In this document: in pieces, positions 6,001-12,000 of the stretch
Position numbering within the stretch: position 1 is the stretch's first letter
How the letters are laid out: each line of letters begins with the position of its first letter
Assembly (NCBI RefSeq): GCF_041248615.1
Contig: NZ_CP158426.1
DNA length: 64,000 bases
From: Escherichia coli
GTDB taxonomy: Bacteria > Pseudomonadota > Gammaproteobacteria > Enterobacterales > Enterobacteriaceae
Strand: one strand, 5' to 3'
Position numbers: made by a program

Positions 6001-9000
6001 ATATACCCGCAGGGTTTGAACCAGACATTTATTTGTTGAAGTCTAAGATCCAAATGGAAGCATTTATATCCCTCAGATATTATGCGTTGACGGGTTGATA
6101 AAGATACTTTTAGAGGGTTAATAAATGGAGAACGTATAATAAATCTCTTAAACAAACTATAACCTGTACTAATGAAAAAAATGGGAATAGATAAGTTAAT
6201 AGCCTATTCTAAAAATGGTAAAGTGGTTTTACTTCCAAAATAATGGAGTTTAGTATGAAAATCGAAGCTAATTCCCTTACTCATCCCTATGACTACAACG
6301 CCTCACTGAACAATTATTTACATTATTTTGAGAATTTCTCTCGTAATGACTGGAATAAAGATTCATGTGGAGGATATTTTACTTTTAGAGATGATGACAG
6401 AGAGTGTGTTTTGTTTTTTGTGAATTATGGTGATAATTTTTCATTGCGCTATGATTGTACACAAAGTTCTGATGGAATAGTGTCATGCTGGTATAGTAAC
6501 CATGAAGATGATAAAATGAATATCATCGTCGATGCTGATACAGAACAATTTATCCCTTTAGGTTCTTGCTTACCTCCTGATATTACTTTATCAGTAATAA
6601 AAGATTTTTTCAAAAATCCTTTAGAGAAATCAAAAAAAGTAAAATGGATGAATGCAGATGACATTGACTGGTCATCTGTGTATTAAAGTTGGATTGGATA
6701 ATTATCTGTTTCAAAAATCATTAAATTTAGAACCTATCTGTTCAACAGAGCTGCCTTGAACAGCAGGTTCTTTTATGATGTCCAGGAGCGAATATGCCTG
6801 TGATGTCTGGCACTCAGCATCTGACTGACCTGGACTACTGATCCTACTCACACAGGGAGCTAGACCTGGAAGCAACCTACTGTAAGCAGTGCAGTAGCAG
6901 CCCACCTCACATCAGTCCTTGCAAGGTGTGGGCCTTTGTGATCTTGCTCTGTATTGCTGAGATCCTCAGGAAGGACTCGAAATTTAATCAGGAAGGCCGT
7001 TGCTAAAAATCAAAAAATAAATTCAAGAGCAATTTCTAAAACTTTTGAATCTACTGTATCGGATGAGGTTTTCACTCCTTTCCAAAAGGTGAGTTTTCAA
7101 GCATTCAAGTTTCTGTTATGACCAAAACTTCACCATTTAACACTAATCCGAGTATTATGTTACCATGAAGAAAAAAGATATTAGATTTGCAATATCCATT
7201 AACTCCAACTCAAGTAAGATAGAATTAATGGAAAAATTAAAAACATAATCCCAGGGCTTATTGAAATAACTCCCAGTGCATTAAGAGAAGAAAAAACATG
7301 GTAGTTATTGAAGATAATGATCTTTATGACCCTATAAAAGCAGAGGGAGTTGATGGATGGATGTATTATAAATTCATATTATCCATATTCCCATTAAAGG
7401 GAGTAGACACAACATTAGAATATCAACGGGAATTATCTTTTCTTTTCTTAAAGAAATTAAAAGATGCGGGTCTGTTAGGTGAACTTATATGCGAGGATGA
7501 TTTTCATGACTGATGACCTCTACATATATCCTCAGTTCGTGGCTGGTATTACATGATCTGACAGGGAAAGATCGTAGCGAAATCAAAAAAGACGTGGATT
7601 TCCCGGAAGCCGGTGAAGACACAGCGCTCTGCGACAAGGAGACTAAACCGCCGAGGATAACCCAGGGCAGCAGCAACGTTTTTATCAACAATCAGCCCGC
7701 CGCGCGCAAGGGGGACAAACTGGAGTGCAGTGCGGCGATCGTGGGAGGTTCGCCGGACGTCTTTATTGGGGGTGAGCAGGTCACCTATCTGGATATCCAG
7801 CCGGAGTTCCCGCCGTGGCAGAGAATGATCCTGGGGGGAATAACGATAGCCAGCTATCTTCTGCCGCCAGCGCAGGGAAAGATCACGTAACGCTGCTTTT
7901 TTGTACTAAATAATTCGCACTAAATGTTCAATAATTGAGATATTCCTTATTACCTAAATACAGTTCCACCAAGATTACCTAAACCCAAATGAGGTAAAAG
8001 ATAGTGGGTATGAATAAAAATGAAATCCATTTCCCTATAGGATATGGTTGGTTGAATGAAAAAAAAATTATTGGCACCAGTGAATTTAGCCAATTAGAAC
8101 CATGGTTTTATCTAGATGAGAACAGGTGTTTTTTTGCGAATAAAAAATGGCCAAATGTCATAGGTGAACAATTATTCGCTTTTGCTAAACGTCAAGATAA
8201 TGATGAATTGGCTTGTTTCAAAATTAATGAATCTGGAGTCTGTGAGGGTGTTTATTTAATTAATGGGTGGACTCCTAACGGGTTTGATATTATACAATTT
8301 TACCCTGATTTTTGGGAATGGGTACATTTGGTTATACAAGATGTCTCGGAGTGGATTGATAATAAAGGATAATTTGAAACAAAAGTAAAAAACCGCCTTC
8401 ATTGAAGGTAACGTGGAGTGGTGGGCGGAGCAGCCTGCCCGCAGACACAGACTACCCGGACCCGCGCGGGGAGCGGGACGCGGAAGCCGACCCCGGCCTG
8501 CTGTATGCAGGACAGTGGCAGGATGCGGAATCCGGACTGTGCTATAACCGGTTCCGGTATTACGAGCCGGAAACCGGGATGTACCTGGTGAGTGATCCCC
8601 TGGGGTTGCTGGGGGGTGAGCAGACTTACCGGTATGTGCCTAATCCTAGTGGGTATGTTGATCCTCTGGGATTAGCAACGTGTCCTATACTCAGACAGTG
8701 GGCGCTGACTAACCTTGAAGCCAGTCGGGCAGCAAGGGCTGCATCTAATTTTGGTAAGCCTCTGGTCCAGCGAAATAAAACGATTGGCGATAAAGTAAGG
8801 GATATGATTGCCAAAGAGAGGGGAACCACTCTAATTGAACAAAATTATAGAGTGACAGGAGGATTAAAGCGTATTGACGTTGTTGATGGAGTAACGGGTA
8901 TAGAATCTAAAGTCGGTCGAACAGGGTTAACAACCCGAGTACGGCAAGAGGTAGCGCGGGATATTAAGATTTTGAGAAGTGAGCAACTTGATCAAATTGA

Positions 9001-12000
9001 ATGGGTGTTTACAAGAAGTTCAACTACAGGGAAGATTGGGCCAACTAAACCACTTGAAGATCTTTTAAATAAACATGGTATACCGATTATTTATCGATAA
9101 GGAGTGATAGTGTGAAACTCAAACCGATTGGTGACTTTTTAAACAAAAATGGGTTTATAAAAAATGGTAACAATGATTTTTATAAAGTTCATGATAAGTT
9201 TGTAAATTGTATAAATTTTCAAAAAAAGAGTACAGGTGATATTTTTTTTATAAACACAGGTGTTCATCCTGTGTTCGAAAATTTTTGCAATGAACCACCG
9301 AAAAAAGAAATAGATTGTTACATCCGTAACCGTGTGTGTGATGGACTAAGTATATCTTTGCTGCATTCTTTTGAAGGTAGTGAGTTTGTTATCAGTGAGA
9401 TAAAAAACAAAGCGTTTTGTTTTTTTGAATACTTTGATTCATTGAATAAAATATTCGATGCTATTCGTGTTGTAGATATTGAAGAGAGAAATATTTGCGA
9501 TGAGCTAAGTGGTGTAAGCAGCGTAAGATTAGCTTTGATGTGTATGAACTACCAGTATGAGAAAAAAAAATTTAGCCTTGTTTCTGATTTTGCGAACTAT
9601 GGTCTTGCTATATCTAGAGGCCCGGTACCGAAAAAAGCATTGGATTTGCCCCTATATTTCCAGACACCTGTTATCACTTAACCCATTACTGGCCTGCTGC
9701 CGCAGATATTCCCGTGGCGAGCGATAACCCAGTGCACTATGCGGATGCCATTCGTTATAATGCTCGAACGCCTCTGCAAGGTTCTTTGCTGCCGTTAACC
9801 CGTCTGGTTTAGGCATGATACTGATGTAGTCACGCTTTATCGTTTTCACGAAGCTCTCTGCTATGCCGTTACTCTCCGGACTCCGCACCGCCGTGTTCTT
9901 CGGTTCAAGCCCCAATATCCGGGCAAACTGCCGTGTTTCATTAGCCCGGTAGCATGAACCATTATCCGTCAGCCACTCTACTGGAGACGCCGGAAGCTCG
10001 TTGCCGAAGCGGCGTTCCACCGCTCCCAGCATGACGTCCTGTACTGTTTCACTGTCGAAGCCGCCCGTAGTGACTGCCCAGTGCAGTGCCTCACGGTCAC
10101 AGCAGTCCAGCGCGAACGTGACTCGCAGTTTTTCTCCGTTATCACAGCGGAACTCGAACCCGTCAGAGCACCATCGTTGATTGCTTTCTTTCACGGCCAC
10201 TTTGCCAGTATGTGCCCGTTTCGATGGCGGTACAGCGGTTTTTCGCTCAAGCAACAGCGCATTCTGGCGCATGATCCGGTAAACACGTTTGGCATTGATC
10301 GCAGGCGTACCATCAAGTTCGGCCTGTCTGCGAAGCAGCGCCCATACCCGACGATAACCATACGTGGGCAGCTCTCCGATAACATGGTGTATACGGAGAA
10401 GCACATCCGTATCATCTGAGTGACGGCTGCGGCGACCATCTTTCCAGTCATCGGTTCGTCTGAGAATTACGTGCAACTGCGCACGCGACACCCGGAGACA
10501 ACGGCTGACTAAGCTTACTCCCCATCCCCGGGCAATAAGGGCGCGTGCGCTATCCACTTTTTTGCACGCCCGTATTCAACGGCTTCTTTAAGGAGTTCAT
10601 TTTCCATCGTTTTTTTGCCGAGCAGGCGCTGGAGTTCTTTAATCTGCTTCATGGCAGCAGCAAGTTCAGAGGCAGGAACGACCTGCTCTCCTGCGGCCAC
10701 AGCAGTAAGACTTCCCTCCTGGTATTGCTTGCGCCAGAGAAATAACTGGCTGGCTGCCACACCGTGTTGCCGGGCAACAAGGGAGACCTTCATTCCCGGT
10801 TCAAAACTCTGCTGAACAATAGCGATCTTTTCCTGTGTAGTACGCCGTCTGCGTTTCTCCGGTCCTAAGACATCAATCATCTGCTCTCCAATGACTAGTC
10901 TAAAAACTAGTATTAAGACTATCACTTATTTAAGTGATATTGGTTGTCTGGAGATTCATGGGGCCAGTCTAAGCATTTAAGGATATGATAAAAATAACAG
11001 AGTGATACCTAATCCGGTGTAATACTTGCTGCCTGTGTACCGCGAAGATTAACGGCCGGGAGGAAACTATTCTCTACAACCGGGACGCCACAGGCCGCCT
11101 GGCAGAAGTCATCACGCCGGAAGGCAAAACGCAGTATGCGTATGACAAATCCGGCAGGCTGACGGGTATCTTCAGCCCGGACGACACATCACAGCGCACC
11201 GGCTATGAAGAACGCGGGCGGGTGAATGTCACCACTCAGGGCAGGGAAAGATCATCCAAAGTACACTTTTTGTACTAAATAATTCGCATTTTATGTTTAA
11301 AAATTGAGATATTCCTCATTACCTAAAGCTGTTTTTATTGCTTATACATGATCAAATACTCCTTACATAATTAAGGAGAACAAAATGGAACTTAAAAAAT
11401 TGATGGAGCATATTTCTATTATCCCCGATTACAGACAAGCCTGGAAAGTGGAACATAAATTATCGGATATTCTACTGTTGACTATTTGTGCCGTTATTTC
11501 TGGTGCAGAAGGTTGGGAAGATATAGAGGATTTTGGGGAAACACATCTCGATTTTTTAAAACAATATGGTGATTTTGAAAATGGTATTCCTGTTCACGAT
11601 ACCATCGCCAGAGTTGTATCCTGTATCAGTCCTTCAAAATTTCACGAGTGCTTTATTAACTGGATGCGAGATTGCCATACTTCAGATGATAAAGACGTTA
11701 TTGCAATCGATGGAAAAACACTCCGGCATTCTTATGACAAGAGTCGCCGCAGGGGAGCGATTCATGTCATTAGTGCGTTCTCAACAATGCACAGTCTGGT
11801 CATCGGACAGATCAGAACGGATGAGAAATCTAATGAGATTACAGCTATCCCAGAACTTCTTAACATGCTGTATATTAAAGGAAAAATCATCACAACTGAT
11901 GCGATGGGTTGCCAGAAAGATATTGCAGAGAAGATACAAAAACAGGGCGGTGATTATTTATTCGCTGTAAAAGGAAACCAGGGGCGGCTTAATAAAGCCT

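Follow-up and report, generated by a model that had tools for sequence, protein, structure and literature searches.

Rhs orphan modules have been described by Poole et al. (2011, PMC3150448) and Koskiniemi et al. (2014, PMC3967940). They consist of a 3' tail of the Rhs core that includes the PxxxxDPxGL motif, an alternative toxin tip and an immunity gene. They lie downstream of a full-length, vgrG-linked rhs gene and have no translation start, and the same tips are found on full-length rhs genes in other strains. In Salmonella LT2 the orphan is deployed only after recombination with the main rhs gene, with which it shares 522 bp at 95% identity (PMC3967940). Here we analysed a window of 64,000 nucleotides of Escherichia coli DNA (NZ_CP158426.1), using as gene annotation the RefSeq record of the E. 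coli NRZ14408 chromosome (NZ_LT599825.1; record position = window position + 3843665). According to this annotation, a Rhs element linked to a type VI secretion system (T6SS) lies between cusS and nfrB. The cassette under study, at window positions 8431-11005 of this element, is made up of an N-terminally truncated rhs fragment, a DUF4304 gene and an insertion sequence (IS), IS2.

This cassette has in common with Rhs orphan modules the core tail, the alternative tip with its immunity gene, the position downstream of a full-length rhs gene, the missing translation start and the presence of its tip on full-length rhs genes of other strains. Unlike in those modules, the immunity gene has an IS2 insertion and the cassette is known from sequence alone. 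It also has less homology to the main rhs gene than the Salmonella orphan that was tested, in both length and identity (240 bp at 92.9%). We consider it probable that the cassette is a displaced T6SS-linked Rhs toxin-immunity orphan with a PD-(D/E)xK nuclease tip, which is silent and whose immunity has been damaged by IS2. It is of an ordinary kind, a Rhs orphan hit by an IS; all its ingredients, the PD-(D/E)xK toxin included, are familiar, and the general view of bacterial competition is unaffected.

The initial annotation of this DNA had called the cassette a third orphan. It carries the third tip of the element but is the second rhs orphan, because the first tip (ending at 2303) belongs to the full-length 1619-aa main rhs gene; the other rhs fragment is called orphan 2 below. 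In NZ_LT599825.1 the cassette lies downstream of the full-length main rhs gene, which has a tip and an immunity gene of its own. Its features are listed here by window position, and residues are numbered in the open reading frame (ORF) that ends at 9100.

1610-1849, plus strand: 3' core segment of the main rhs gene, homologous to the orphan core tail and a potential recombination partner
8431-8674, plus strand: Rhs core tail, ORF residues 11-91, placed by alignment to the main rhs gene and ending in PSGYVDPLGL (DPLGL at 8660-8674)
8675-8755, plus strand: 27-residue linker ATCPILRQWALTNLEASRAARAASNFG after DPLGL, in common with the tip of orphan 2
8756-9100, plus strand: 114-residue toxin domain of predicted PD-(D/E)xK fold, ORF residues 119-232 and stop codon
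8801-8803 and 8948-8950, plus strand: predicted supporting residues D134 (helix 1) and E183 (helix 2)
8867-8869, plus strand: codon of K156, a lineage-specific R-to-K change
8876-8911, plus strand: predicted catalytic hairpin, with D159 (8876-8878) on strand 2 and E168-S-K170 (8903-8911) on strand 3
9112-9640, plus strand: native part of the putative DUF4304 immunity gene (codons 1-176 and the first base of codon 177), with a GTG start after AAGGAG
9636-9640: left copy of the target duplication AGCAT
9640-9681: IS-encoded tail of the immunity ORF, 13 codons and a stop codon (9679-9681)
9641-10971, minus strand for the transposase genes: IS2 (IS3 family), 1331 bp, recognised by length, ends and flanks; IS3 family transposase with programmed frameshift in RefSeq
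10972-10976: right copy of the target duplication AGCAT
10977-11005, plus strand: 3' remainder of the immunity gene beyond IS2 (from the second base of codon 177 through the stop codon; FKDMIKITE)

The ORF at 8402-9100 that had been proposed exists and has 232 codons, but its TTG start is an artefact of ORF listing. Similarity to the Rhs core sets in at 8431, and the RefSeq entry, 8432-9100, is a partial RHS coding sequence whose N-terminus is missing. The model TIGR03696 (Rhs_assc_core) matches residues 29-91 of the orphan (E = 1.2e-18). The longest identical run between the core tail and the main rhs gene is 38 bp, and as the core tail is the sole homology to that gene, it would be the recombination handle. 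The homology between the orphan and orphan 2 extends further (8431-8758 against 4570-4897, 328 bp at 94.2% identity). The tips of these two orphans have in common a 27-residue stretch after DPLGL, ATCPI[IL]RQ..L.NLEASRAARAASNFGK (8675-8755 and 4814-4897), and then continue into unrelated toxins. The linker recurs in the full-length Rhs protein of E. coli PapRG-06-3, described below, and in a homologue from Salmonella. It might serve as a breakpoint for recombination that the tips share, or as a linker with a function common to them. A short GC-rich hairpin, CCTTCATTGAAGG, at 8396-8408 coincides exactly with the left edge of the orphan, with an A-run on its upstream plus-strand side and a terminator-like score on the minus strand.

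The distribution of the cassette was determined in 5426 complete E. coli genomes. The toxin-immunity pair is present in 114 of them, always as one chromosomal copy, and 110 of the copies are at least 99% identical. The truncated left boundary is exactly that of the window in 109 of the 114 carriers. Two carriers have longer partial fragments, WL297 (annotated as partial, about 412 aa) and 2013C-4282 (about 517 aa). In the baboon strain PapRG-06-3 and the otter strain A15 the tip is borne by an intact 1611-aa Rhs protein, encoded at the same vgrG-linked locus and followed by DUF4304. The copy in the window is therefore a true displaced orphan. Between these armed alleles and the window, 112 of 114 residues of the toxin domain are identical (one of the two differences being at residue 156, and the armed allele being R156/P207), as are 175 of 184 residues of the immunity protein.

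The toxin domain had no significant match in Pfam-A, NCBIfam, PADLOC, PHROGs or the PDB sequences, the last of which were searched with both a single sequence and a profile. In Pfam it had no match even at E <= 10, and the models Tox-REase-2, -3, -5, -7 and -9 were among those that it did not hit. When 66 of its homologues were scanned against Pfam, none matched a Tox-REase model, and there were two faint matches to a DpnII-MboI REase model (best E 5.9e-3). An exhaustive search of 1.84 billion cluster representatives returned relatives of the domain in 653 clusters (50% identity) at E <= 0.001. This is a toxin family with no Pfam model and no solved structure. In 160 of 166 retrieved homologues, which are up to 3630 aa long, the domain ends at most 15 residues from the C-terminus and is preceded by RHS/YD repeats or PT-HINT pre-toxin modules. 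Judged from these sequences, such a C-terminal placement is the signature of a polymorphic-toxin tip.

The initial annotation had quoted the peptide KRIDVVDGVTGIESKVGRTG from this tail as compatible with a restriction-endonuclease-like D...ExK core. The peptide is present. All 138 homologous C-terminal domains have its D159, E168 and K170 unchanged, so that the motif is far beyond chance. G172 is likewise invariant among the 138 aligned domains, residue 183 is E or Q in all of them, and D134 is kept in 91%. In the numbering of the domain, D16, D41, E50, K52, G54 and position 65 correspond to ORF residues 134, 159, 168, 170, 172 and 183, respectively. An AlphaFold2 model of the 114-residue domain, made with 66 diverse homologues, had a mean predicted local distance difference test score (pLDDT) of 96.2. 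The order of elements in the model is helix, three strands, helix, strand, helix, strand, of which the following were listed in domain numbering: helix 3-22, strands 26-33, 36-44 and 47-53, helix 60-74 and strand 80-86. The model and the conservation together place D on strand 2, (D/E)xK on strand 3, an acidic residue on helix 1 and Q/E on helix 2, which is the PD-(D/E)xK layout.

The structural neighbours of the model (scores in brackets) are NucS (9.6), VC1899, SfsA, nicking and type II restriction enzymes and Can2/Card1. Interbacterial toxins are also among them, namely the CdiA-CT of EC869 (7.4), TseT/Tox-REase-5 (7.0-7.1) and the CdiA-CT of Y. pseudotuberculosis (6.8). A comparison by Foldseek was far weaker (best E 2.5e-3). 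The idea of a PD-(D/E)xK enzyme with a D...ExK core is thus supported by topology, structural neighbours and residue conservation, and the structure prediction, which had been named as its check, gave a restriction-endonuclease-like fold and no refutation.

We infer that the toxin is a nuclease, with DNA as the likelier substrate because of its structural neighbours. Some toxins of contact-dependent inhibition systems that have the PD-(D/E)xK fold are tRNases and not DNases. With the same fold and context, the toxin might be a ribonuclease (RNase), for example a tRNase, that arrests growth by cutting tRNA or rRNA. We regard this as quite unlikely. DNA is the substrate of its nearest neighbours in structure (NucS/EndoMS, type II restriction enzymes, nicking enzymes, EC869 CdiA-CT and TseT), and the characterised T6SS effector families with this fold, PoNe and VRR-Nuc, are DNases (PMC6688995, PMC9635880).

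Like the Tox-REase toxins, the domain has a restriction-endonuclease fold with a D...ExK site and is found at the C-terminus of RHS/HINT-type toxins; a solved example of that group is TseT/Tox-REase-5 (PDB 7dym, 9oz0). The extended motif NKxxGDxxRD ... GxRRxDV ... IESKVGRT ... RQExARD ... WxF..S..TG..GP is specific to the present family. Like PoNe with its immunity protein PoNi (Jana et al. 2019, PMC6688995), it is a widespread PD-(D/E)xK toxin that was missed by homology searches, is found with several secretion systems and has a DUF-type immunity gene directly downstream. Identity with PoNe was rejected, as the motif Kx3GE...GIDx2Y...Yx3ExK and the DUF1911/DUF1910 immunity gene are both absent, the downstream gene being DUF4304. 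The CdiA-CT(o11) of E. coli EC869 with its CdiI (PDB 4g6u) differs in its delivery by contact-dependent inhibition (type V secretion), and its CdiI is unrelated to DUF4304; in the searches of PDB sequences no similarity between this CdiA-CT and the toxin domain was detectable. The C-terminal nuclease domain of NucS/EndoMS and AF1548 (PDB 2vld, 5gke, 1y88) differ in belonging to DNA-repair or uncharacterised archaeal proteins, are 17-19% identical and have no immunity partner.

The intact form of the downstream protein matches Pfam DUF4304 (PF14137) with E = 6.7e-10, residues 7-75 against positions 2-75 of the 115 in the model, and its RefSeq name agrees. The Pfam model stops short of the C-terminal helical half, where the motif cut by IS2 sits. 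A DUF4304 gene lies directly downstream of the toxin in seven of the seven loci examined in which the toxin is at least 53% identical (four full-length metagenomic RHS genes, orphans in Morganella and Pectobacterium, and E. coli). This conserved adjacency supports the earlier proposal that the downstream ORF is the immunity gene. Three more distant toxins (at most 48% identity) have unrelated neighbour genes. Immunity in this toxin family therefore comes from more than one family, and DUF4304 as the partner of every toxin clade was ruled out on these grounds. Several immunity families per toxin family are usual for polymorphic toxins. Two distant members of the toxin family, 39-45% identical, are followed by proteins of 188-211 aa (at 5131-5766 of locus L014 and 2915-3481 of locus L015) which by eye are similar to each other. 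These proteins had no match in Pfam and none to the DUF4304 profile, and they may belong to another immunity family, so far undescribed, that serves this toxin fold.

In the literature that was searched, no paper mentioned DUF4304 or PF14137. In the DUF4304 protein G14-F15 and Q37 are invariant, and the N-terminal half is predicted to form a helix, four strands and a helix. Among described pairs, Tox-REase-4 (in RHS and HINT contexts) has the signature 'D, ExK' and partners that include Imm54, characterised as 'alpha+beta; GF, Q' (Zhang et al. 2012, PMC3482391); Imm54 has a frataxin-like fold (PMC9424270). Compared by description only, the two pairs agree in their motifs (D, ExK; G14-F15, Q37), and the helix-strands-helix arrangement of the N-terminal half is compatible. 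The AlphaFold2 model of the intact immunity protein had a pLDDT of 95.6, with a helical pair like a tetratricopeptide repeat (TPR) and a last helix at residues 171-184. Across 64 DUF4304 homologues, most of which are 20-25% identical to the E. coli protein, conservation is 0.60 on average and reaches 0.87 in the C-terminal segment AGMAVGPKKALKDILKR, which ranks with the best-conserved 9-residue windows.

The coordinates of the insertion (9641-10971) and its AGCAT duplication had been given exactly by the initial annotation. We take the 1331-bp element to be IS2 from its length, its ends and the 5-bp duplication. Its minus-strand ORFs encode 136 and 301 aa, and the 1331-bp unit is found at full length in more than 3000 plasmids. 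When IS2 and one AGCAT were removed in silico, a 185-aa ORF resulted that is identical to WP_000769435.1 of strain ST2747. The fused protein, WP_192459761.1, has 189 aa. The last ~13 codons of the gene had been thought to be replaced; in fact nine native codons are lost (FKDMIKITE), and the 13 codons are those added by the IS. The cut lies directly after KKA of AGMAVGPKKALKDILKR, behind residue 176, and removes 8 of the 14 residues of the last helix; the substitute has two prolines.

The insertion has most likely weakened or abolished immunity, and the damage is probably worse than had been assumed, because half of the conserved terminal helix is removed. On the other hand, the fused protein may be fully functional, if the C-terminal residues are dispensable for binding the toxin and the insertion is harmless. 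The protein does keep 176 of its 185 residues, including the whole Pfam-defined DUF4304 region (7-75), and at the first replaced position the IS supplies L, the consensus residue of the family there. Changes at the ends of immunity proteins are often tolerated. We nevertheless hold this to be rather unlikely: the lost segment is part of one of the subfamily's best conserved motifs, kept even at 20-25% overall identity, and it makes up the latter half of a terminal helix, predicted with confidence, in the TPR-like pair. In its place come D, L and P at positions where K, D and I/M are the conserved residues. Tentatively, and as less than an even chance, we propose that DUF4304 is the dedicated antidote of this large uncharacterised family in the clade examined, that the C-terminal helix motif (GPKKALKDILK) is needed for neutralisation, and that the IS2 allele is a natural loss-of-immunity mutant.

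The IS2 junction occurs in 1 of the 114 E. coli carriers, NRZ14408 alone. One carrier with an intact target duplication points to a single recent event and is not evidence of long-standing tolerance. That the silence of the toxin is the reason why damage to its immunity gene is tolerated, as had been suggested, is speculation.

The toxin had been judged probably silent, for want of a start codon and for its short core homology. Upstream of the toxin domain we found no in-frame ATG, GTG or TTG with a Shine-Dalgarno-like sequence. Together with the 240 bp at 92.9% identity and the published behaviour of Rhs orphans (PMC3967940), this fits the judgement, and on the sequence the orphan is probably silent. 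Scans for promoters and terminators gave sites no more frequent than in shuffled sequence. An internal start at M135, from which some gene callers predict a 98-aa product, was rejected, as the product is without the conserved helix 1 and the start is without a Shine-Dalgarno-like sequence. As in Salmonella, the route to re-arming by recombination may be open here, and it is expected to be rarer.

At residue 156 the orphan has K, in contrast to the R of the armed E. coli alleles and of 136 of the 138 family members; in sequence terms K156 could be an early mark of relaxed constraint or of attenuation. Between the alleles of the window and of WL297, the ratio of nonsynonymous to synonymous substitution rates (dN/dS) is 0.36 in the toxin domain (13 differences) and 0.30 in the immunity gene (50 differences). 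These values, which rest on small numbers, would be compatible with past purifying selection. Besides the tRNA-cutting toxins and the unrelated neighbours of distant toxins mentioned above, three points weigh against our view of the cassette. Low-level expression by read-through or from an unconventional start is possible, K156 means that even a re-armed toxin might be attenuated, and the dN/dS values, from few substitutions, may mirror history on armed genes and not selection on the orphan.

K156 also bears on the idea that the cassette is a decaying fossil without present or future function, the toxin crippled by R156K, the immunity gene useless and IS2 a case of neutral erosion. In its favour, just two residues separate the orphan from the armed allele, and one of these is at a position conserved to 99%; the element around the orphan contains much debris (a PAAR fragment, core fragments and ISAs1), and the main rhs gene of related strains is frameshifted or has an internal stop. 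The armed version occurs in only 2 of the 5426 genomes, so that an incoming threat would be rare. Yet the toxin ORF is intact, all catalytic residues are kept and the R-to-K change is conservative. The immunity gene is IS2-free in 113 of the 114 carriers, though the 110 at >= 99% identity imply largely shared ancestry. A dN/dS of about 0.3 in both genes speaks against long neutral drift, and as armed strains exist, the immunity gene can have protective value. We consider the fossil explanation doubtful.

For a silent orphan with a nuclease tip, we propose the following course. The toxin would be a small, metal-dependent nuclease in which D159, E168 and K170, with D134 and E183, form the metal-binding and catalytic site, and DNA would be the most likely substrate. 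In the armed form, the domain would be held inside the YD-repeat shell, freed by self-cleavage at DPLGL and delivered into neighbouring bacteria by VgrG and the T6SS, while the DUF4304 product would bind the toxin and so guard the producer. In NRZ14408 the cassette has only 240 bp of core and no translation start, so that the toxin would not be made. It could be deployed only through recombination between the core of the main rhs gene (1610-1849) and the orphan core tail, which would fuse the tip to the main gene. IS2 would have entered codon 177 recently, exchanging the second half of the conserved C-terminal helix for a foreign tail. If immunity is lost, a re-armed toxin beside the damaged immunity gene would be self-harmful.

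Two further rhs genes of the element are as follows.

105-2303: 3' end of the main rhs gene, which is full-length (1619 aa) and begins upstream of the window (RefSeq)
Orphan 2: rhs fragment of 776 aa with its own immunity gene (RefSeq)

In the RefSeq annotation the element begins with vgrG, a DcrB-related gene, the main rhs gene, the immunity gene of the main rhs gene, and orphan 2 with its immunity gene. It continues with small ORFs and a PAAR fragment, the orphan under study, DUF4304, IS2, a rhs core fragment and an ISAs1 (H-repeat) transposase gene, followed by nfrB and nfrA. The DcrB-related gene beside vgrG presumably encodes a DUF1795/Eag-type adaptor. A Pfam search with the tips of the main rhs gene and of orphan 2 gave no match. 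In strains ST2747 and 7/2 the main rhs gene bears the tip of orphan 2, yet it is a pseudogene (frameshift or internal stop). In NRZ14408 the main rhs gene has a different tip and immunity gene (about 1850-2784), and the older tip is kept as the 776-aa fragment (compared over window positions 1-5763). From these sequences, the tip swap on the NRZ14408 main rhs gene looks like a recent displacement.

Between the two orphans lies a PAAR-domain fragment lacking both ends (7513-7890; RefSeq pseudogene at about 7573-7872), which matches NF033420 with E = 2.3e-8. It is flanked by small hypothetical ORFs (6243-6686, 7298-7513 and 8004-8372) without a family match, and together they are probably remnants of another effector-immunity cassette. 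Next after IS2 and the cut-off 3' end of the immunity gene comes a short internal rhs core fragment (about 11030-11270) that resembles window positions of about 380-600. The ISAs1-family (H-repeat) transposase gene at 11385-12521 follows it, and the same arrangement ends the element in all related strains examined.

For a large toxin family that is invisible to current profile libraries, annotation as a restriction-endonuclease-fold toxin with assigned catalytic residues is now possible. DUF4304 is a candidate immunity family of this toxin, including a conserved C-terminal helix that lies outside the Pfam model. One locus in E. coli offers a natural allelic series, from the armed full-length Rhs through long partial fragments and the short orphan to the orphan with IS2-damaged immunity, and this series is ready material on how orphan cassettes are stored, re-armed and lost. 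If our proposal on DUF4304 and its C-terminal helix is true, it would give DUF4304 a role, and the orphan would be a booby-trapped cassette, whose re-arming in NRZ14408 would poison the recombinant and its siblings.

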